Position numbers and translations under genes: made by a program | Notes under the pieces: model-generated | Told to the model about the DNA's origin: nothing | Seen by the model: only the letters and a program-made list of their open reading frames with translations | Databases searched by the model: none | Assembly: GCA_963823335.1 (NCBI GenBank) | Contig: CAWGLD010000001.1 | Coordinates: forward strand, 1,472,001 to 1,536,000 | Direction: 5' to 3' | Origin: an uncultured delta proteobacterium | Lineage (GTDB): Bacteria; Desulfobacterota; Desulfobacteria; Desulfobacterales; B30-G6 | Length of the DNA stretch: 64,000 bases | In this document: positions 4,727-45,120 of the stretch, in pieces | Layout: each line of letters starts with the position of its first letter | Numbering within the stretch: the first letter of the stretch is position 1

Positions 4727-5953
4727 TTACCCGATTTTATTTGGAACCCCTTTTATGGCAGCGACGATGCGCCCAAGGGCCTCCATGAGAAGGGTCCGCG
4801 GACAGGCAATGTTGATGCGCTGGAATCCATCTCCTTCGGGTCCGAACAGGCTTCCTTCATCCAGAAAGACACGAGCCTGGTTCAGGAAGAGGTTTCTAAA
4901 CTGATGTTTGTCCAGGCCGAGGGAGCGACAGTCGAACCAGACAAGATACGTCCCCTGGGGCTGAATGACTTTGATTTCCGGGAGATCGCTCTTAAAAAGA
5001 CGCGTCAGCTCATTCAGATTTTTATTGAGATAGTGCAGAAGATCTTCAAGCCATGGTTCTCCCTGTTCATATGCGACACGGCACGCTGTTGCGCCGAAGG
5101 GATTGATTCCGAACAAACCGTTGGCAAGAAGACTTTCTTTGAATTGTTGACGGGTTTTTCTGTCCGGGATAAAGATGTTGGAAGTTTGAAGGCCTGCCAG
5201 GTTGAAGGTTTTACTCGGTGCGGTGCAGACGATACTGTTTTCTTGAAAGGCGCTGTCTGCCATGGAAAAGGGGCAGAACATCACACCTGGATAAACCAGG
5301 TCCCCGTGAATCTCATCTGAAATGACCTGCACGTGGTTGCGTTGACAGATGTGGCCAAAACGCTGGAGTTCTTCACGTGTCCAGACGCGGCCAACAGGAT
5401 TATGAGGACTGCATAAAATGGCCAGCTTGACATCCGGGTCGGCTGCTTTGCTTTCCAGGTCATCGTAATCCATGTGATATTGACCCTCAGTCAATACAAG
5501 GGCGTTGGATACGATCTGACAACCATTATTTTCTATGGCGCTGAAAAAGGGATAGTAGACGGGTTGCTGAATCAGAATCTTGTCTCCAGGTCGGGTAAGG
5601 GCCCGCACCAGCAGGTGCAGTGCCGGAACCACTCCCTGGGTAGTCACGATCCACGATTCTTCCACCGGCCATCCATGTCGCTTTTTCATCCAGCCGGTCA
5701 CGGCTTCCAAATAGGCCTGGTCGGGTTGCGTATAACCGAAAATGCCGTGTCGGGCGCGTTCCTGCAAGGCCTTGACAACCGGTTCAGGACTTGAAAAATC
5801 CATATCCGCCACCCACATGGGCAGAATCCGGTTTTCGCCGAAACAGGCATCGGTTCTCTTCTTTTTGGACGGGTCTTCCGAATCTAGAACAAATTCCCAT
5901 TTGACGGAACCGGTATGGCGGCGATCTATCTCGATGTCGAAGTTTGTCGGCAT
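4727..5953 (-). CDS. MalY/PatB-family PLP-dependent C-S lyase (cystathionine beta-lyase-like)
   Basis: LPMWVADMDF, LCSPHNPVGRVW, SDEIH, PLP-lysine motif APSKTFNLAGL. Confidence 0.92.
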   Translation of the reverse strand: MPTNFDIEIDRRHTGSVKWEFVLDSEDPSKKKRTDACFGENRILPMWVADMDFSSPEPVVKALQERARHGIFGYTQPDQAYLEAVTGWMKKRHGWPVEESWIVTTQGVVPALHLLVRALTRPGDKILIQQPVYYPFFSAIENNGCQIVSNALVLTEGQYHMDYDDLESKAADPDVKLAILCSPHNPVGRVWTREELQRFGHICQRNHVQVISDEIHGDLVYPGVMFCPFSMADSAFQENSIVCTAPSKTFNLAGLQTSNIFIPDRKTRQQFKESLLANGLFGINPFGATACRVAYEQGEPWLEDLLHYLNKNLNELTRLFKSDLPEIKVIQPQGTYLVWFDCRSLGLDKHQFRNLFLNQARVFLDEGSLFGPEGDGFQRINIACPRTLLMEALGRIVAAIKGVPNKIG

Positions 5954-34221: not shown

Positions 34222-34286
34222 CTGCGGGTTGAAGTTCGGGCCCGTCTTGAACTTGAGCCAAAACCCTTTTTTTGAGATGGCTTCTA
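34222..34286 (+). repeat. MITE-like repeat family 2, right-half fragment
   Basis: CTGCGGG.TGAA...TTTTTGAGATGGCTTCTA matches the right part of 55229-55399. Confidence 0.7.
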
Positions 34287-34362
34287 GTAACCTGCTGAAC
34301 AGCCATTCTACCACGTCAAAGTTCCTTCCTGAGTTTGACGCAAAATCTTGGTTTGAAGGCGT

Positions 34363-35029: not shown

Positions 35030-35590
35030 TGTCAGTGTCATGCGTGCTCCTTGTGAAGATAACGAGCAGGGTAGGCTGAAATTAGAATGCCAAATATCGC
35101 AGATAAGGTCAACTGGAGACAAGCTGGTATTTTCCCAATTATTGATGTCCTTGTGGGGTATAGTGTGGGGAACGGCTATTTTCAGAAATAAAACAGGGAC
35201 TCAGTATCCGTTTCCAAGGTATGTTGCCAAATCACTCATTTTTTCCAAGGAAAATTGCCAATTCCATCACGAGGGGGCCTCGAAATACACTATCTTGGAG
35301 ATACAAAACATATCGAGGGCCGATGCCGGAAAATTATAGCCGTTCTGAATAAATCCTGTTATGTCATCTGTTGAAAATAATCTGCGTCTATATGGGGAAA
35401 ATGTACCATTTGATATTTGCAAAAATAGTTTTGGTAGGTTTACATCAAGGTGTTGCTTGAGGGATTCCACACTAATAGCCGAAGTCTTGAGCTTTGCAAA
35501 TGAGGAATTTCCAGATACCAAACCGGTATCACAGTTTGAAAAAACCTTGCCAACGGCCTTGATGAGTTGGCACCACCTGGCACTAAAGAC

Positions 35591-35965
35591 TTATGCCAGT
35601 AATCTTGAAAATTCCACAAAAGCTTTCCTGTTCGTTTCCAAAGCTTTTCGGTACTCCTCGCGTGAAGCGTTTACGCGAGGGTCATTCTCAGCATACTGAA
35701 TCATAAGCGGTGCTTGAATTTTGGCAACATCATCAGTTGCCGGAGCGCGACCATAAAACGGAACACCGGCATTCAGGTTTTTTCCCATTTTCACTGCAAG
35801 ATTATTGACAACACCGCCACCATAGCAAAAGCCTGTTGCTCCCAGCTTGCCATTGCACAACTCATGGGCTTTTAAGAATCGGGCACTGTTCAACATGTCC
35901 GTGAAGAGCTTATCTCCATTCAAAGACTTTTGCATGACCTTCCCATCGTCATCGTTTCCGGGGTA
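35591..35965 (-). pseudogene. Internal fragment of a dienelactone hydrolase (YghX-like)
   Basis: YPGNDDDG, nucleophile GFCYGGG, GVPFYG, AENDPRVN; N-terminus and catalytic-His region missing. Confidence 0.8.
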
Positions 35966-37543: not shown

Positions 37544-37640
37544 GATAGATGGAACCACCTGCCATATAAAATTATTGATACCATGATCCGTGACTTTCAG
37601 ACCATGAAAACTTCACAACCACAAGATATGGGATTGGAGA
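37544..37640. repeat. Island repeat B, degenerate short copy
   Basis: GATAGATGGAACCACCTGCCAT resembles the start of the 40630 copy; contains GATACCAT and ends TTGGAGA. Confidence 0.45.
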
Positions 37641-37694
37641 ATATCTGGCAAAACCGTTGATTACGCTAATAAATATTGATGTCCGTAAAGTTGT

Positions 37695-37864
37695 GATTAA
37701 TGGAGACAAATCCAGTTATCAAGTTCAACGGCAATATTACCGATACCATTCGGTCATCCCCACGGTACCATGAGAACCACTATTAATTCAAGATTCGGTC
37801 GGTTGTGATTATTTTCGCACACCGGTAATTTTTTAGGGCCTGATATCTAAATTTTCGTAGGAGA
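37695..37864. repeat. Island repeat B, full copy 1 (170 bp)
   Basis: About 80% identical, ungapped, to 42653-42822 (hand count); invariant core GTTGTGATTATTTTCGCACACCGG at 37802-37825. Confidence 0.9.
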
Positions 37865-37894
37865 TGGACGACCTGACTATTTTGGAGCACTTAT

Positions 37895-38842
37895 TCATTG
37901 ACTATCTGTGGCTTGACACTTTGCTATAGTAACACAATTTTTTCCAGCCTCCTTAGCAGCAAAGAGGCATTTATCAGCCGCTGTCATAAAATCATTTAAA
38001 TCGCCTCCATAATTAGCAACACCACAGCTTACTGTAATTCCATCTAAAGATTGTCCATCAGAACTTGTGAATTGAGTTTCAGAAATCTTTGTTACAAATA
38101 TTTTTGCTATTTCCTCTGCCTTAATAATATTACATCCGGGAACCAAAACTGCAAATTCATCTCCACCATATCGGAAAACCATATCTGATCTGCGGAGGGT
38201 GTTTTTTATTATTGCAGACACTTCTTTTAGCAGTATGTCTCCTGTTTGATGCCCATACGAATCATTGTAGTGTTTGAAGTTGTCAAAATCGATCATCATA
38301 AGAGACAGTTCTTGTTTTTCCCTGTCTGCTTTACTTGCTTCTTCGATCAATTTCAAATCAAAATAGCGTCTATTATACAAAGAGGTCAGCGAATCCACCG
38401 TTGCCATCGCTTCGAGTTTGATGTTTAACTCAAGCAATTGCTTTGTCACTTCATCAAGCTTGCCCATCTTGTCCTCAAGATCGCCATGGATTTCATTAAA
38501 TACTTCATGGATATCTGCCAACTCGTTCTGATCCTTTTTTAAAGGATGCTGTTTTCCTTTTACCCATGCTGATTTAGATCTAATCTCCTTTGATAGTTTT
38601 TCGATTGATCCTATCCAGTTATACCCCAATGCGATACTGAGTAATGAGGGTATAAGCATGGCTATCACACCATATGTAAAGACGGGATTAAGAGCATGCA
38701 GTTGGGTTTCGCCAAGCATTGGTGTCACATATCGATAGACGACAAAAACCATTATCAGAAGCGGCAGGGCTGATGATAAAAGGTAAAATACCGTAAAATT
38801 TCTCCTAAAGTTTGCTTGAAATATTGAAGATAGAAACGTCAT
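37895..38842 (-). CDS. Membrane-anchored diguanylate cyclase (GGDEF)
   Basis: Two TM helices, coiled coil, DSLTSLYNRR, DFDNFK..ND.YGH, RRSD I-site, RYGGDEF. Confidence 0.93.
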   Translation of the reverse strand: MTFLSSIFQANFRRNFTVFYLLSSALPLLIMVFVVYRYVTPMLGETQLHALNPVFTYGVIAMLIPSLLSIALGYNWIGSIEKLSKEIRSKSAWVKGKQHPLKKDQNELADIHEVFNEIHGDLEDKMGKLDEVTKQLLELNIKLEAMATVDSLTSLYNRRYFDLKLIEEASKADREKQELSLMMIDFDNFKHYNDSYGHQTGDILLKEVSAIIKNTLRRSDMVFRYGGDEFAVLVPGCNIIKAEEIAKIFVTKISETQFTSSDGQSLDGITVSCGVANYGGDLNDFMTAADKCLFAAKEAGKNCVTIAKCQATDSQ

Positions 38843-38895
38843 TATAGCCTCCTGATAATTATGAACGGCCTGTAGCTACCGATATTTGGAACTGA

Positions 38896-39040
38896 TAAGA
38901 ACAAGTTGAGGATCAGACCAGCTTTGATAATGATACTCAGTTTCAGATCAGGTATGAATTGGATACAAGGTACATACATGGTTTGGTGAGGTGGATCAAG
39001 TTTTGACAGTCTCCGCATTACAGATACATGGAGACAAGTG
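38896..39040 (-). repeat. Island repeat A copy 2 plus the start of repeat B
   Basis: TCAGATCAGGT shared with copy 1; minus strand TTGATC-N17-TATGTA; GATACATGGAGACAAG at 39023. Confidence 0.65.
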
Positions 39041-39284
39041 CAAGTTTAGCAGGCCCGTAAAAACCTGCGATAACATTGTATTCCACTCTCCATTTGGCTA
39101 TTCTTACCCTTGCAGATATCATTTATCTTACAATTTTGCAAAAAAGGGAAAATCGCCGAAACGATTCTCCCTCATGATAACATAAAAATGCAGGTTGCCT
39201 AAAAATGGCTACGGTGGTGATATGCTAAAAAACCTGTAAACATTGCGAACTGGGCATAAGTTGGTGGTATTGCCATTCAAAAAT

Positions 39285-39317
39285 AAAAAAAGGCAGGGCC
39301 GAATGACCTTGCCTTTT
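39285..39317 (-). terminator. Rho-independent terminator
   Basis: AAAAAAAGGCAGGG...CCTTGCCTTTT downstream of the 39348-39644 gene. Confidence 0.7.
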
Positions 39318-39347
39318 CTGTGAACCCTAACTGGCAACTTATTGTTT

Positions 39348-39644
39348 TCACCCCAATACCTTTAGGGAATCTGGAACAGTCATCAATGGTTCAAGTTTCC
39401 ACGATGTTCCTTCTATTTGCGTTAATGGAAACATCGTCTTCGCTATCTCCAATAGCGCTTCGTCCTCTTTCCCCTTCTCTGTAAATATTAGGTTGTAACC
39501 CTTGTACCCACATTCATAAGAACACGAAAATGTCTGCCACTTCTTTATGCCTGCCGTGGGTGGGTTCGCTGCTAAATCTAAAATGCATTTTTTCCACTCT
39601 TCGGTTTTATCCATCGGCATTGTATAGGTCCCCATAAATATCAT
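39348..39644 (-). CDS. Hypothetical protein
   Basis: 98 aa, GGAGGT RBS, downstream terminator. Confidence 0.7.
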   Translation of the reverse strand: MIFMGTYTMPMDKTEEWKKCILDLAANPPTAGIKKWQTFSCSYECGYKGYNLIFTEKGKEDEALLEIAKTMFPLTQIEGTSWKLEPLMTVPDSLKVLG

Positions 39645-39748
39645 ATTTTATTACCTCCTTTTCAAACGTTGGTTTCCAATAATGTTTCCAATTTAGGGCA
39701 TATTGATATCATCCTGCCCTTTCTTAACTTTTAATCCGAATAAAAATT

Positions 39749-40249
39749 CTATGGCGTTTCCATTTCACCTTCCACTTCAACATAACTTTGTTGTGGAGCT
39801 ATCATGTAACTAGTCCAATTTCCCCCTCCAGTTGCTCCTTCAAATTTTCCGGTACCGCCTGTCACTGTATACACACCTTTCCATTGACTCTTTGAAATCG
39901 GTTTTCCTTTAAATGATCTGTTTGATTTATCGCCATCTTTGTCGGTATGTACTCCATAACCCGTCAAATACATTTCTTCAGGCTTGCTTGGGTTCACATT
40001 CATGAAACCGACACTTCTATCGGCAAATTTTTCTCCGCTTATTTCATTAGCAAAGATTGAGTGTTGTTCATAAATTATAATTATATGCCCTTCAGCATCT
40101 CCAACTTCAATTTGATGCATTTTAGTCGTATAGCCCACGCCATGTGACTTAATCTCAAGTTTTTCTCCTGCTATTGCAAAGTCAAGTGCAATAAACCCAA
40201 ATACAAAAACAACCACAGTTGTGAGAATAACTAATTTTGATTTAAACAT
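39749..40249 (-). CDS. Exported hypothetical beta-rich protein
   Basis: Signal peptide, GGAGG RBS, motif GGTGKFEGATGGG. Confidence 0.7.
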   Translation of the reverse strand: MFKSKLVILTTVVVFVFGFIALDFAIAGEKLEIKSHGVGYTTKMHQIEVGDAEGHIIIIYEQHSIFANEISGEKFADRSVGFMNVNPSKPEEMYLTGYGVHTDKDGDKSNRSFKGKPISKSQWKGVYTVTGGTGKFEGATGGGNWTSYMIAPQQSYVEVEGEMETP

Positions 40250-40439
40250 TGTTGCGCCTCCTTTCCCAAAAGCGTAAGACCGTTAGCCAACATGCGGTTA
40301 AGAATGTGATTATCTCTTGCCATCATTATGACATAAATGCCTCCACAGTATGCACGAATCCTCTGGAGGCTTCATATTGGCAACTTCAGATGTCCTATTA
40401 TCACATAGAGTATCATTTTGTTTTTGTGGTTTATTTGAT

Positions 40440-40565
40440 GGTGAATTGTGTGGGCAGATTGAGAGTCTGGTCAGACAAGTTACAGCTGCGAAGATTCAGC
40501 TTCAAACTAGATGTGATTTAGATATAATGTTAAATACCTATATGATTTAATTGGTTGTGTCAAGA
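40440..40565 (-). promoter_or_regulatory. Island repeat A, copy 3
   Basis: Ungapped similarity to about 26916-26979; minus strand TTGACA-N17-TAGGTA. Confidence 0.5.
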
Positions 40566-40629
40566 AATGAATATTTTAGACGTTTTAGAGGGTGTGTTTT
40601 GCAGGAAATCCTGCCATACTAGCACCGTT

Positions 40630-40801
40630 GATACATGGAGAACACCTGACATTTTGAAATATCAGGCAATATTACCGATACCATATGGTCATCGCCAAGG
40701 TATCACGGTAGGGCCTATCAATGCAAGATTCCGTCTGTTGTGATTATTTTCGCACACCGGCAATATTTTTAGGGGTCTGATAGCTACAATATTGTTGGAG
40801 A
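40630..40801. repeat. Island repeat B, full copy 2 (172 bp)
   Basis: GATACATGGAGA start, GGCAATATTACCGATACCAT, invariant core at 40737-40760, TTGGAGA end. Confidence 0.9.
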
Positions 40802-40944
40802 CATCATGCTATTTTTATCAGTTCGATATGTTTTCAGTTTTTGTCCATATTTTCCGCAATGGAAAACTTTCACACACGTTTGGGTGTGCGTTAGAGATAC
40901 CTTGAAAATGACCGTTATAGCCATAGGCATTAGTTGGATTTCCC

Positions 40945-41142
40945 TCAACTCATTTGGTACGAATCACATTGGGAACATCGGTCATTCAATTCCTGTGCCC
41001 TCTGGTCGTCTAATGCAAAGTTTGATGGATCGTTGAACAGGGACAGGATCATTTCCGGGTTTTTACTGTACAGACACTGACCTGCATTTAGATTGTCGCA
41101 TTTGGTGAACAGTAGTGTTTTATCCGATCCTTGGTTGGGCAT
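40945..41142 (-). CDS. Small cysteine-containing hypothetical protein
   Basis: 65 aa with four Cys (C..C..CSQC); AAAGGT upstream. Confidence 0.45.
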   Translation of the reverse strand: MPNQGSDKTLLFTKCDNLNAGQCLYSKNPEMILSLFNDPSNFALDDQRAQELNDRCSQCDSYQMS

Positions 41143-41378
41143 GGTAAAACCTTTTTTGAAGAGGTTATAGGTAAAGCGTCAATAAGCCAATGTGAAAAAG
41201 CCCCCAAGATGGAGAAAGCACTGGCAAATGAATTATCTTCTCAGGGGCTTTTTACAGGGCCGGAGGTGCCGCTGGGTGGGCAAACCCAGAGCGCATCCCT
41301 GTAATTATTTTCTAATTCAAATTGACAAGACAATCAAGACTACTTAATAACCCATATAATACCTATACAATATGGGTG

Positions 41379-42362
41379 TTATGCGAGGGATGTCAGGTGG
41401 GACTGTAGATTGACTTTTGTATTTTTTATTCCGAGCTTATTTCTTATATTTTCCCTATGGCGTGCTACTGTTTTATGTGAAAGATTTCGGATCGTTGCTA
41501 TTTCTTTTGTCCCCTTGCCCTGTCTTATAAGAGAAGCCACTTTTATTTCGGCAGGCGTTAATCCGAAAGAATTAGAGGACAGTTGGAGGGAAAATGGTGA
41601 AACAATTTCGTGCAGACTTGATTCTATAACATCAAGCAAGGCAATTTGTGTTTCGGTGAGTTTGCCTTTTTTTAATTTTTCGACATAGGGGAGCGCCAAT
41701 CTTTTTACATTGGACAGTACCTGTTCTTGCAAGAGTATTTTATCTTCTTCTCTTTTTTCTAACAGGACGTTCAGGGCGACATTTATCTCTTCAAGCTTAT
41801 TTGTCTTTGATTCTAATTCTTTGGTTCGATCTTTTACCATGTATTCCAGATTTTCTGAATATGCTTTTATCTTTTCCTCTGCTTGTTTGCGCTCGGTGAC
41901 ATCACGGGTGATGCCTATGACACCGGTAGGCAAACCGGCTTTATCTCGCAGAAAAGAAACTTTAACCTCAATTGGAAGGACGCTGCCGTCTTTGCGTATT
42001 GTATCCAGTTCCAAAACAATTGACCGGTCCGGCAAGACCCCTGGATCGCCGTCACATCCAATCTCCTCTGAAAAGGTTTGTATCACTTTTTGATAAGACT
42101 TAGGTGTGAATGCTTGTTCCAAATCAATTTGCATAAGCTCCTCAGGTTTATATCCCTGCAGCTTCTTAACCGATGGGCTAATATAGGTAAACTTGAGGTC
42201 CATACCTAATATCCAGATGACATCGGTTACGTTGCTTTCTAGCAATTGATACTTGTGTACGTTTTCTCTCAATGCTTCTTCCGTACGCTTACATTCCGAT
42301 TCAATTTTCTCTAATTCAAGAATCCGCTTTTCTAATTCAGCGTAGGTTGGCTTTTCAGACAT
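41379..42362 (-). CDS. PAS-domain LuxR-family transcriptional regulator
   Basis: KPTYAELEKRI coiled coil, PAS/PAC (FTYISPSV, RKDGS, ITRDVTERK), C-terminal HTH LTPAEIKVA...HRENIRNKLG. Confidence 0.92.
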   Translation of the reverse strand: MSEKPTYAELEKRILELEKIESECKRTEEALRENVHKYQLLESNVTDVIWILGMDLKFTYISPSVKKLQGYKPEELMQIDLEQAFTPKSYQKVIQTFSEEIGCDGDPGVLPDRSIVLELDTIRKDGSVLPIEVKVSFLRDKAGLPTGVIGITRDVTERKQAEEKIKAYSENLEYMVKDRTKELESKTNKLEEINVALNVLLEKREEDKILLQEQVLSNVKRLALPYVEKLKKGKLTETQIALLDVIESSLHEIVSPFSLQLSSNSFGLTPAEIKVASLIRQGKGTKEIATIRNLSHKTVARHRENIRNKLGIKNTKVNLQSHLTSLA

Positions 42363-42652
42363 GAAATACACCTATATTTTTCAAATATTATGAATTGTAG
42401 ATACTTGCATTATTGTTAGGTTACACCTAACTCAAGTATGGTTGAAGCTATTGTGAAACGTGTGAACGAAAGACTGAACCGGGTGTATTGTGGTGCGGTG
42501 TGTTAGAAGGTTAGGTCAAATTCTCGCCTGATTCAGATTAAAGCGCACAATATCAATAAACTATGAAAACCACAATGGGTCTTTCAAGTACTTTGAATGG
42601 GTTGTGATGTGTTCTGAAAAACCTTCTGAAAACCAAATATTGGGCAAGTAAC

Positions 42653-42822
42653 GATAGATGGAGACAAGTACAGTTATCAAGTTTGATGCAAATATTGCCG
42701 ATACCATCTGGTCATGCCCACAGTACCACGTGAGCCACTATGAATACAAGATTCAGTCGGTTGTGATTATTTTCGCACACCGGCAATTTTTAGGCACTTG
42801 ATATCTACCGAATCGTTGGAGA
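42653..42822. repeat. Island repeat B, full copy 3 (170 bp)
   Basis: Invariant core at 42760-42783; about 80% identical to copy 1. Confidence 0.9.
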
Positions 42823-42849
42823 AAGTCCCATCCTCTTACCAAAAAGATG

Positions 42850-43189: not shown

Positions 43190-43921
43190 CTAAGAGACTC
43201 TGTCTTTCATCCTCCAGCTTTCATTTCCGGTTTCAATGATTTCACAATGGTGCGTAAGACGGTCCAACATGGCCGTGGTCATCTTTTTGTCACCAAAGAC
43301 CTGCGGCCATTCCCCAAACCCCAGGTTGGTGGTAACGATAACAGATGTCTGCTCGTAGAGTTTTGAGATCAGATGGAACAACAATTGGCTGCCATTTTTT
43401 GAGAACGGCAGATAGCCCAGTTCATCAAGCACGACCAGATCAAACCGAACGAGTTGGGATGCCAACTTGCCGCCATCACCTGCCAGCTTTTCTTGTTCCA
43501 GTTCATTAGCCAGGTCCACCAAGTTGTAGAACTTTGCACGTGAGCCGTCTCTGATGGTTTGGGCAGTTATGGCAATGGCAAGATGAGTTTTTCCTGTACC
43601 CGTACCTCCGACCAAAATGAGATTGGAGTGACCTTCCAAAAAATCGCCTTGATACAGGGATCTAATCTGCAGTTCATCCACTCCGGCTTCTTCGAAGTTA
43701 AAGGTGTCAAGAGCCTTCATCGCCGGGAAGCGGGCCTGCCCCATGCGGTACCTGATGCTACGCAAATGCCGCTCGGCAGCTTCAGCTTCCAGAAGTTCAA
43801 GAAGGATCTTTTCGGGAGTTGATCGCTGCTTTCGTCCGCTGGTGAGAACCTCATCATAGACAGCATGCATCCCTCTCAGCTTGAGCGTTTCCATGGTTTG
43901 CAAAATATTATTTCGCAGCAT
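43190..43921 (-). CDS. istB: IS21-family helper ATPase IstB
   Basis: Walker [47 protein letters not shown]. Confidence 0.97.
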
Positions 43922-44095
43922 GCTGCCTCCGATCGATTAACATCTCATAGCGATGACAATCGGCAATAGGTTCATTTATCAGCATCAGTTGCTCAGGCAG
44001 ATCAATCACCGTTGTTTGTTCTTTATCCTGGCTGCGGTGCAAAATGTTCAAGACCACTTCCTTGCTGACGACCGGCATTTTCAACGCCTGTCGAC
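43908..44095 (-). pseudogene. istA: IstA transposase C-terminal fragment
   Basis: SKEVVLNILHR...L..EPIADCHRYEML, overlapping the istB start. Confidence 0.8.
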
Positions 44096-44096
44096 A

Positions 44097-44633
44097 CAAT
44101 GGGATGATATTAATTTTGAGGAACGATATATTCATATTCAAAGGGGATTGGCACGGGGAAAAATATCATACCCGAAATCAGGTAAAGACCGAAAAGTCGA
44201 TATGAGTCCACAACTGGCAGAAACCCTGAAATGCTTAAAAGGTACCTTCAGGCTGAAGATTGTGGCCGACAACCCTGAACCTGAATATGTCTTTAAGAAC
44301 AGTAGCGGCGAATTGGTTAATTTGAACAATTGGAGAAAGCGGATTTATTTCAAGGTGATTGAAAAGGCAGAAATCCGAAAGATAAGGATTCACGATCTGA
44401 GGCATACATATGCCACCCTTAGGATCAATAAGGGTGACAACATAGCCGATGTGTCAAATCAGCTTGGACACCATTCAGTCAAGTTGACATTGGACGTTTA
44501 TCACCATTGGATGCCAGGTGATAAGAAAGCTGAAGTTGACGCCCTGGATGATCTTTCCCCGATGCACCCAAATACACCCCATATGCACCCTGCCACTTCA
44601 GAAAGTAAAAAAGGGGCAGCCAGTGTTGGCTAA
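44097..44633 (+). pseudogene. Tyrosine integrase, C-terminal catalytic fragment
   Basis: QWDDINF, PKSGKDRKV, IHDLRHTYAT, VSNQLGHHSVKLTLDVYHH; N-terminus and first catalytic Arg box missing. Confidence 0.9.
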
Positions 44634-44647
44634 CCCCTTGAATGTTA

Positions 44648-44722
44648 TGGTGATCCCACCGGGATTCGAACCCGGGTTACCGGCGTGAGAGGCCGGCGTC
44701 CTAACCACTAGACGATGGGACC
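44648..44722 (-). tRNA. tRNA-Glu (anticodon CTC)
   Basis: GGTCCCATCGTCTAGTGGTTAGGACGCCGGCCTCTCACGCCGGTAACCCGGGTTCGAATCCCGGTGGGATCACCA. Confidence 0.97.
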
Positions 44723-44823
44723 ATAATTTTTCTTTGAAAATTTATCAAGTACGGTTTCGTCGCTTCTTGACTGAAACTGATCTAATATTAGAATTTCTAA
44801 TTAATTGTCAAACAAATTATTAT

Positions 44824-44899
44824 TTGAAGAACCTCGCAGCATGCGAAGCACTGCCGAACGGCAGAACCTGCGGGGTTAGCGCTCGCTGTTGCGGTTCAA
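44824..44899 (+). repeat. MITE-like repeat family 1, 76-bp copy
   Basis: TTGAAGAACCTCGCAGCATGCGAAGCACTGCCGAACGGCAG...GCGGTTCAA. Confidence 0.9.
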
Positions 44900-45120
44900 A
44901 AAAGATTTTGAAGATTCTTCTTTCTGCCTTTTCTATATCCGAAGATGAAATATATGGGCGAGCCCACAAACGGGATCGCGGCGATCAAACCCCAGAGGGC
45001 TTTTTTCCCGATGGTGCCGAAATCTTTCTGAAGGCAGTCGACGATGGCCCAGACTGTCAGAAAGAAAAAGGGTACGGTCAAAAGAACTACGACACCCACT
45101 GTTTTTAATTCTTGTATCAT
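44896..45120 (-). CDS. Small membrane protein (PLDc_N-like)
   Basis: WAIVDC...KALWGLIAAIPFVGSPIYFIFG pattern. Confidence 0.75.
   Translation of the reverse strand: MIQELKTVGVVVLLTVPFFFLTVWAIVDCLQKDFGTIGKKALWGLIAAIPFVGSPIYFIFGYRKGRKKNLQNLF

Follow-up and report, generated by a model that had tools for sequence, protein, structure and literature searches.

A short repeat in gene arrays of uncultured Desulfobacterales shares its ends with an element that carries a tyrosine recombinase gene

What places the same short sequence time after time between genes that are unrelated to one another? The question is raised by a 64,000-nt window, the whole stretch of DNA analysed here, from an uncultured, sulfate-reducer-type delta proteobacterium of the order Desulfobacterales (assembly GCA_963823335.1, contig CAWGLD010000001.1), in which a repeat of about 165 bp stands in three co-oriented copies (37688-37864, 40623-40799 and 42646-42822 by repeat comparison) within a variable island next to a tRNA-Glu gene. 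The genome holding the window, called G000, comprises 4.37 Mb in 11 contigs (C1-C11) and is 93.9% complete; the window is G000:C1:1472001-1536000. Related genomes in the comparison set are numbered G001-G018 and onwards, and contig names without a genome number refer to G000. A first-pass annotation, made from the letters of the window, had proposed that the repeat is an undescribed gene-accretion or recombination site. That proposal survives, in changed form.

The finding is much larger than the window suggests. We show that the repeat belongs to a family with sharp termini that is linked to a dedicated recombinase, and that both its short form and a longer, recombinase-bearing form are self-mobile, as judged from their distribution. 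Sequence comparison indicates that gene blocks have been exchanged between arrays and between species, with breakpoints at element edges. Derivation of the short form from the recombinase-bearing element is very likely. With more reserve, we favour a reading in which the repeat is the non-autonomous short form of a small insertion sequence (IS)-like integrative element whose cores let units of gene plus element move, and the chances appear about even, or slightly better, that site-specific recombination at these cores builds the arrays.

A family of repeats in co-oriented arrays

Ungapped, copy 3 in the window is 80% identical to copy 1, the value that the first-pass annotation had reached by hand, and copy 2 is 65% identical to it. 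All three share an invariant 24-mer, which is present exactly three times in the window and has no match in 100 shuffles even with 3 mismatches allowed, and their common orientation is confirmed by comparison and by nhmmer. Seeded with these three copies, nhmmer returned 85 matches in G000, 55 of them full-length, in about ten clusters on C1, C4, C5, C7 and C9, with single partial matches on C10 and C11. A model of the 55 genomic copies finds the window copies at E = 2.5e-55 to 3.7e-53. The copies are distributed as follows.

C7:199.8-235.9k: array of 19 copies in 36 kb, 19/19 in the same orientation, with unrelated genes between them
C1:86-117k and C1:141-165k: arrays
C4:145-181k and C4:537-547k: arrays
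C5:1-10k and C5:91-98k: arrays
C9:11-47k: array
Remaining copies: the window's three, plus a few isolated ones

Within most clusters all copies point the same way; C1:141-165k consists of two opposed runs, and C4:145-181k has one reversed copy. The orientation extends to the neighbouring genes, the longer flanking open reading frame (ORF) being antisense to the element in 181 of 198 flanks. Read in the direction of the genes, 92/100 elements have an ORF of at least 80 aa that stops before the right end, at a median distance of 64 nt, and 97/100 have a next ORF that starts a median of 166 nt past the left end. According to Pfam, the genes between elements are mutually unrelated, and they are mostly single genes. 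Their families include URO-D, SUI1, GDSL lipase, pentapeptide, MFS, DnaJ, Ni-SOD, YceI, acyltransferase and Lcl_C, together with beta-lactamase-fold proteins, hydrolases, GNATs, cytochrome c', SulP, PAS-LuxR proteins, cyclase-TPR paralogues and HU-like proteins. The C7 array begins right behind folC, at the point where synteny with four congeners stops; in G005, elements also lie a few kb downstream of folC, with different cassettes.

Among 40 related genomes the element was found in 12 (E <= 1e-5), namely in 11 of the 14 that belong to the same family and in 1 of the 26 in the order's other families. Exact matches to the 24-mer (25 stretches) were found only in metagenome-assembled genomes (MAGs) titled 'uncultured delta proteobacterium', Thermodesulfobacteriota or Desulfobacterales, and in one 2.6-kb contig binned as Zixiibacteriota.

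The arrays also harbour other mobile elements: an IS110-family transposase, a DDE transposase, two group II intron reverse transcriptases and a Mutator-family transposase (C7:217467-218663, C7:231300-232805, C7:233110-234432, C1:96998-98443 and C1:101690-102901). The arrays appear to be general landing zones.

Termini and mobility of the short form

The median pairwise identity of the element bodies among 111 near-full copies from five genomes is 79.6%. Thirteen pairs of bodies are 93-100% identical; 11 of them have no homology in their flanks, and the other 2 share the right-side flank only. In the pairs that were aligned, identity extends from ATGGAGA to GTTGGAG exactly, and breaks down beyond them. 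Near-identical bodies in unrelated flanks, with identity bounded by these cores, indicate that the short element is itself mobile.

Just outside the cores, the composition in 100 copies is G88 A83 T90 A64 c42 on the left and a53 t52 A73 T70 C60 on the right. In this short form and in the longer, recombinase-bearing one, the ends bear (A/T)TGGAG as a direct repeat within an inverted GATAn...nTATC context; this flanking repeat is a core of constant sequence, not a variable duplication, and the inverted context spans only 4-5 nt (GATA..TATC). We infer that the (A/T)TGGAG repeat is the crossover core of attL- and attR-type sites. In three places the element's middle of about 45 nt is swapped for other sequence between normal halves, about 110 nt long at C1:110101-110342 and C1:161588-161830 and about 500 nt at C4:176397-177047, and the middle appears to be a variable cargo slot.

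Coding potential and secondary structure

The consensus has a frame open from ATG to TAA, and 53 of 55 copies retain the ATG. A decayed small protein gene, corresponding to the 42-46-codon ORF that is open in the consensus, would account for these features. We regard this explanation as barely credible. By count from the translations, in-frame stops interrupt this frame, the only one open in the consensus, in 30 of the 55 genomic copies; divergence by codon position (0.188/0.168/0.207) has no third-position excess; and the ATG belongs to the core ATGGAGA, which is conserved in the long form, where it is not the start codon of the recombinase. The stops and the flat divergence bear out the earlier judgement that the element is not consistently coding.

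Strong conservation of primary sequence, with near-invariant blocks, and the fixed orientation to genes could also point to a structured noncoding RNA or to a shared regulatory module (terminator, promoter or leader) repeated by chance, and in one window copy a weak promoter-like match points towards the next gene. This alternative is improbable. RNAalifold gave no consensus structure (-0.09 and 0.0 kcal/mol on the two strands), a column-pair scan yielded 9 candidate helices (at least 80% pairing) with practically no compensatory change, and Rfam had no match at gathering thresholds or at E <= 1. A promoter and terminator scan returned 23 promoter-like signals versus 16.9 expected and 4 terminator-like signals versus 3.6, inconsistently across the three copies. 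Identical copies in unrelated flanks and the existence of a recombinase-bearing long form speak against the alternative as well. With no consensus fold on either strand and no covariation, the two conserved stems of the first-pass annotation, the strand-asymmetric hairpin site that it described and its proposal of a structured RNA all have to be given up.

A long form carries a tyrosine recombinase gene

The repeat also exists as a long form of about 1.13 kb, in which the left 65-80 nt or so and the right 75-80 nt or so of the short form surround one tyrosine recombinase gene. In G000 this split element lies at C1:163771-164867, with the recombinase gene in the element's own orientation, and a truncated copy is found at C9:36.2-36.8k. 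The sequence common to both forms covers 59-60 nt on the left (85-86% identical) and 61-62 nt on the right (85-89%). Element halves surround the recombinase gene in three genomes, G000, G001 and G015, the last from another family, and the long form aligns across four genomes, with conservation beginning at the left core. The 24-mer is kept in the long form, with 2 differences in G000. The first-pass annotation had suggested looking for a consistently linked recombinase, and this Xer-like gene, which lies inside the long form at another place in the genome, answers to that description. It had also counted a match to a known IS end against its proposal; the ends are indeed common to an IS-like element, so that this objection holds, but only in spirit, as no description of that element was found.

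We examined 84 recombinase loci, 80 metagenomic (fetched by protein) and 4 genomic. About 28 left and 21 right ends of the long form have constant termini and unrelated outer flanks. On many long metagenomic contigs the long form has no array nearby, and short copies can lie on either side of it, which identifies it as a discrete mobile unit of about 1.13 kb and not a fixed platform. A fixed platform at the head of the array was considered and rejected: it fitted C1 and C9 of G000 as well as G001, but is contradicted by G015 and by the metagenomic contigs, where short copies occur on either side or are absent. Tandem accretion of cargo-bearing integrative elements was rejected too: between genes a left half precedes a right half, which is the reverse of what a tandem junction shows.

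The recombinase scores 64.6 bits against PF00589 (cut-off 27.1), and uninterrupted 278-aa homologues also match PF14659 and PF13495, SAM-like core-binding domains. In the translation, the R..K..HxxR..H..Y residues can be made out by eye. Among NCBIfam profiles, archaeal XerA comes nearest, at 87.7 bits and below the cut-off of 220; the XerC and XerD models TIGR02224 and TIGR02225 give 36.6 and 35.6 bits (cut-offs 335 and 330), the integron-integrase model TIGR02249 gives 28.3 bits, and the nearest solved structures are Xer proteins (best 46 bits). At 278 aa, the protein is too short to hold an arm-binding domain. From its sequence, the protein is predicted to be a simple Xer-like tyrosine recombinase with core-binding and catalytic domains. 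A published classification (PMC8138268) describes simple tyrosine recombinases as having no arm-binding domain and assigns such a domain to its Desulfovibrio-specific IntDes group; on that description, the element recombinase does not fit IntDes.

Most recombinase genes have an unusual layout. At 50 of the 84 loci, an out-of-frame start (a Shine-Dalgarno sequence with ATG) is followed 54 nt downstream by a run of A8-A10, which is A9 in 44 of them; 11 loci have an uninterrupted 278-codon ORF, 8 are cut by the contig end and 15 are unclassified. Up to the A-run, the 23-codon leader agrees with the N-terminus of the uninterrupted homologues, so that reading one A fewer would restore the full protein, and expression of the recombinase probably needs slippage. 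A homopolymer artefact seems unlikely, since most A9 loci are on metagenome contigs assembled independently of the MAGs. The layout is kept across 64-98% protein identity, and an element half adjoins 29 of the 50 frameshifted genes versus 1 of the 11 in-frame genes.

The recombinase family is large, with 4,195 metagenomic proteins at E <= 1e-10, many of them on contigs of about 1 kb that probably break at these repeats. A plasmid collection gave no match, and a phage collection gave only integrases below 30% identity. At the level of titles and abstracts, we found no description of such an element in the literature, and no report of A-run frameshifting for a tyrosine recombinase or integrase. 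Six loci of distant recombinase homologues (49-67% identity) have no flanking element and only scattered short repeats nearby. At one of these, on G018:C30 (49% identity), a 71-nt direct repeat (91.5% identical) lies just past the stop codon and again 5 kb away (L106 10444-10513 and 15481-15550), consistent with a repeat pair that bounds an ordinary integrative element of about 5 kb.

Two further observations concern the arrays and the neighbourhood of the recombinase genes. HU/IHF-like proteins are common cofactors of tyrosine recombinases, and three HU/IHF-like genes lie in or at the edge of arrays (C1:91124-91510, C1:119154-119438 and C9:37479-37775), one of them as the first cassette by the truncated recombinase on C9. 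Beside the long form on C1, a trimethylamine-methyltransferase (MttB) gene on the minus strand (C1:162034-163521; L037:4034-5518) is broken into two ORFs by one in-frame TAG (L037:4540-4538), beyond which the frame continues; the TAG could be a pyrrolysine codon, or the gene a pseudogene.

Co-oriented arrays of unrelated, mostly single genes, each then followed by a conserved repeat, are also what classical integron attC sites or CALIN arrays (clusters of attC sites lacking integron-integrases), with IntI acting on folded single strands, would present, and in this respect the arrays do have the integron layout of ORF then site. We nevertheless consider an integron a most improbable explanation. 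The best match to TIGR02249 in this 93.9%-complete genome reaches 88.5 bits against a cut-off of 265, and lies in Xer-like genes; the element recombinase itself falls far lower, and its gene sits within one copy of the site. Neither a consensus hairpin nor covariation is seen, and attC architecture, with inverse cores and a hairpin-folding palindrome, is lacking: the two ends, ATGGAGA and GTTGGAG, are direct and not inverse, so that there is no R''/R' pair. Neither does the repeat resemble an XerC/D-dif or pdif site, given scores far below the cut-offs and, by inspection, no 11-6-11 palindrome. The view taken in the first-pass annotation, of a recombination-related element unlike attC or dif at the junctions of unrelated modules in co-oriented arrays, therefore holds.

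Mobility of the gene blocks between elements

Core genes of the congeners are 76-90% identical, and inter-element blocks are 95-100% identical across species and arrays. The ends of these blocks cluster at model positions 16-49 and 175-184, with 2 exceptions. Whether synteny breaks at fixed nucleotides had been asked in the first-pass annotation, and breaks of synteny and homology are found at the element edges.

Several individual cases define the joints. Over exactly one array period, consisting of a gap, a gene and the whole downstream element, C7:226983-228095 is 99.6% identical to C7:213574-214686, and both junctions lie inside the 12-nt left-end motif; a second duplicate of this type (element plus adjacent DNA) is present in G007. 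Between a cassette in the C4 array and the first one next to the G001 recombinase, identity is 99.2%, with breakpoints at the right core and the left end. A DnaJ-domain gene that is flanked by elements in G000 is 99.5% identical to an element-free gene in G007, identity stopping in the middle of the right core. In G004, both copies of a 100%-identical 2.5-kb duplicate end at a core, beyond which lies an element body in one case and other DNA in the other.

Isolated copies were compared for filled and empty sites. At the 3 tested, there was no clean empty site between conserved neighbours, and two of them mark joints of unrelated blocks. The copy at C1:768k sits precisely where two blocks meet that have their G007 homologues on separate contigs, within a 3.4-kb segment absent from G001 and G005. 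The third, a right-half fragment, is inside a 3.9-kb block that is 97% identical with G004, fragment included. An apparent empty site in G004 was discarded, as its downstream sequences do not match. A 16-nt joined-core motif has 2 matches in the window versus 0.79 expected, both of them element left ends, and 24 matches in the genome at up to 2 mismatches, mostly element left ends with 2-3 candidate solo cores.

These data can be accommodated by a mechanism in which the recombinase would act on the TGGAG cores in trans. Neighbouring elements in direct orientation would recombine at like cores to give a circle of one element and the adjacent gene or genes, and the circle would re-insert at the core of any other copy, producing co-oriented element-gene-element arrays. 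The site would be double-stranded and non-hairpin, with the logic of integron cassettes or IS26 translocatable units and a different enzyme. The three window copies, one small array in the tRNA-Glu variable island, would depend on the recombinase at C1:163.8-164.9k.

Alternatively, the repeat could be a purely selfish miniature element, mobilised by the recombinase of the long form and inserting preferentially behind genes in variable islands; blocks would then move by island turnover or by homologous recombination and gene conversion, with no cassette-capturing role for the repeat. This would agree with the 11 of 13 near-identical bodies in unrelated flanks and their sharp termini, with the merely generic similarity of the bodies around the 99.2%-identical cassette, with the frequent occurrence of the long form alone, without arrays, and with the mapping of contigs from other copies as mosaics of several elements. 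It does not agree with the lack of a clean filled-versus-empty site at the isolated copies, with the extreme co-orientation and clustering, complete in the C7 array, or with the duplication junctions on C7, which lie in the 12-16-nt left core and not in the longer 24-mer that homologous recombination should prefer. The G004 duplicate likewise ends at the core in both copies. Junctions inside the short core rather than the 24-mer, on C7 and in G004, argue against gene conversion, and overall we think it rather unlikely that the repeat is selfish only.

Recombination between cores, which we prefer, has to be held against a number of observations that weigh on the other side. Gene conversion among the approximately 85 copies would also give block breakpoints at element edges. 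The model explains neither the antisense bias relative to flanking genes nor the clustering of copies. For the 99.2%-identical cassette shared with G001, neither flanking body was co-inherited. Empty core sites, sought in the genome with the joined-core motif, are rare and at chance level, and head-to-tail junctions number 0 in 5,368,047 nt. Unitigs from public runs (X1, X2, X3 and X8), which on the C7 array were too short to show excision, revealed no recombination product; every listed joint there links element to element, has sides of 21-60 nt and is what other copies of the family would give. G000 has one full recombinase gene, which is frameshifted, and one truncated copy. Long forms without a nearby array, or with short copies on either side, do not provide a fixed integron-like platform, and the conserved 45-nt middle of the short form bears no relation to the long form. 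Finally, about 150 nt are conserved, although simple enzymes lack an arm-binding domain (PMC8138268).

The window copies and their surroundings

The window copies and the features around them are as follows.

37695..37868, plus strand: short element copy 1; left core ATGGAGA at 37700-37706, right core GTAGGAG at 37857-37863; nhmmer match 37684-37872, E = 2.7e-55
40630..40805, plus strand: short element copy 2; left core at 40635-40641, right core GTTGGAG at 40794-40800; nhmmer match 40621-40814, E = 3.7e-53
42653..42826, plus strand: short element copy 3; left core at 42658-42664, right core at 42815-42821; nhmmer match 42643-42834, E = 2.5e-55
37802..37825, plus strand: invariant 24-mer in the right half of the element, again at 40737-40760 and 42760-42783
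39012..39076, plus strand: left-half element remnant (model positions 5-70, E = 4.7e-4), about 180 nt upstream of the start of the GGDEF gene
37895..38842, minus strand: inter-element block, GGDEF diguanylate cyclase; 90% identical to G007:C15, where no element match is listed nearby
39348..40249, minus strand: inter-element block, two ORFs (98 and 166 aa) with no Pfam family
41166..42619, minus strand: inter-element block, PAS-LuxR regulator (41379-42371) with flanks; 92-95% identical to G007 C20:131142-132785
43190..43921, minus strand: IstB-like IS21 helper ATPase gene; context only, outside the element system
43953..44633, plus strand: truncated phage-type integrase of 226 aa beside tRNA-Glu; a different protein from the element-borne recombinase
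44648..44722, minus strand: tRNA-Glu (CTC), where the variable island meets conserved core genes

The body of copy 1 is 95-96% identical to copies at C1:100.2k, C4:150.0k and G007:C20, all in unrelated flanks, and copy 2 is a member of a subfamily with a divergent left part. Copy 1 had been placed close behind the stop codon of the minus-strand GGDEF gene, and 30 nt indeed separate that stop from the end of the copy. The 98-aa ORF of the second block is 85% identical to G007:C20:130742-131088, and the G007 counterpart of the PAS-LuxR block is part of a different array.

The smaller traces proposed in the first-pass annotation fared less evenly. Of its truncated left-end motifs, that at 39023 corresponds to the remnant listed above; the one at 37544 is not supported (E = 1.3), and the motif given for 27001 was not reproduced. 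A 10-mer at 35114, which had been counted as a trace of the element, is at chance level, because it recurs at 5579 and, as a variant, at 35909. The suspected link to a tyrosine recombinase was right in that a dedicated enzyme exists and wrong as to the candidate, the integrase by tRNA-Glu: this integrase was unmatched at E <= 1e-10 when G000 was searched with the element's own recombinase.

At 43190-44633, in the stretch from the array to tRNA-Glu, the IstB-like gene has no IstA partner, and together with the truncated integrase it looks like a remnant of older insertions. Other repeat families are present in the island and genome. Short repeats of about 65-90 nt at window positions 44815-44909 (beside tRNA-Glu) and 34222-34297 both have copies 89-97% identical on many contigs of G001, G004, G005 and G007. 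A family of about 155 nt (C1:766207-766361) is 83-96% identical at dozens of places in G001, G002, G004, G005 and G007; in G007:C14 the orthologous site lacks the repeat and is unbroken, and this copy looks like a clean insertion of the kind made by MITEs (miniature inverted-repeat transposable elements). A family of about 133 nt at C7:195578-195711, between the genes for CCA-adding enzyme and adenylate kinase, is 89-98% identical at many sites in G001, G004, G005 and G007, and 83% at one site in G010.

Implications

A wider interpretation, which we put forward tentatively and hold to be doubtful on balance, is that bacteria have a second, integron-independent way to build and trade gene-cassette arrays. 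The recombinase gene in its own double-stranded site would constitute a slippage-throttled, self-mobile element of about 1.1 kb, and the enzyme-less 165-nt copies would be portable sites. Such sites might make any neighbouring gene translocatable, and so drive hypervariable islands and cross-species exchange in uncultured marine and sediment Desulfobacterales-like bacteria. To our knowledge, how genes become cassettes is unexplained for integrons; the element-free G007 homologue of the DnaJ-domain cassette gene could be a snapshot of a gene becoming one. The abundance of the element may also partly explain the poor assembly of such genomes and the differences in islands between species and, if active, the system would add a compact pair of recombinase and site to the toolbox. 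Even on a minimal reading, a high-copy MITE-like element mobilised by a tyrosine recombinase would be a type of repeat that we did not find described for bacteria.

Comparison with known systems

The features of the systems compared here (integron cassettes, IS26 units, MITEs, cis-mobilizable elements, pdif modules and IS1/IS3 elements) are general knowledge. MITEs are short, high-copy and non-coding, and like the present repeat they share both ends with a longer, enzyme-encoding element and occur as near-identical, sharp-ended copies in unrelated flanks. They differ in having long terminal inverted repeats and variable target-site duplications made by a DDE transposase, where the repeat has a conserved direct repeat typical of site-specific integration, a tyrosine recombinase (PF00589) as parent enzyme, and extreme arraying and orientation bias. 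We know of no family in ISfinder that is defined by a tyrosine recombinase.

Cis-mobilizable elements (CIMEs), ICESt-type accretion and tycheposon satellites offer a parallel in enzyme-less, att-bounded elements mobilised by a related integrase, and in islands formed by repeated site-specific events. Those elements are kilobases long, occupy one conserved gene or tRNA end and have tandem junctions of right then left end, whereas the repeat here is 165 nt, runs left then right between genes and is found at more than 80 places. The pdif modules of Acinetobacter plasmids are gene modules bounded by short Xer-type recombination sites in different contexts; their sites are 28 bp long, inverted around the module and served by host XerC/D, in contrast to the direct, far longer repeat with its dedicated mobile recombinase.

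In the layout of its gene, the recombinase resembles the IS transposases that are throttled by programmed slippage. As in IS1/IS3 frameshifting or slippage on A-runs, a leader and a main ORF in different frames meet at a conserved homopolymer; here the enzyme is a tyrosine recombinase, and slippage is presumed from the layout.

The textbook case of a cassette-array system is the integron; the other example that has been widely studied is the IS26 array. With integron cassettes the present arrays have in common the co-oriented, unrelated and mostly single accessory genes, a conserved repeat and a simple Xer-like tyrosine recombinase; one duplication even consists of a gene and its downstream repeat, with the junction at the repeat's far end. 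Here, by contrast, there is no IntI and no folded single-strand site, the cores are direct, about 165 bp of primary sequence are conserved, the recombinase gene rides in a mobile copy of the site instead of a fixed attI/Pc platform, and the repeat moves alone. With IS26 translocatable units and pseudo-compound transposons they have in common directly oriented copies of a small element interleaved with passenger genes, duplicated units of element plus DNA, and a proposed growth in which one element with adjacent DNA targets an existing copy conservatively; IS26, unlike the present element, relies on a DDE transposase (IS6 family) and terminal inverted repeats, where we find a tyrosine recombinase and mostly enzyme-less 165-nt copies. 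Alongside these two, the repeat and its recombinase are a candidate third solution to the cassette array, combining a non-folding site of about 165 bp, direct-repeat cores, a recombinase inside the site and an IS-style frameshift throttle.

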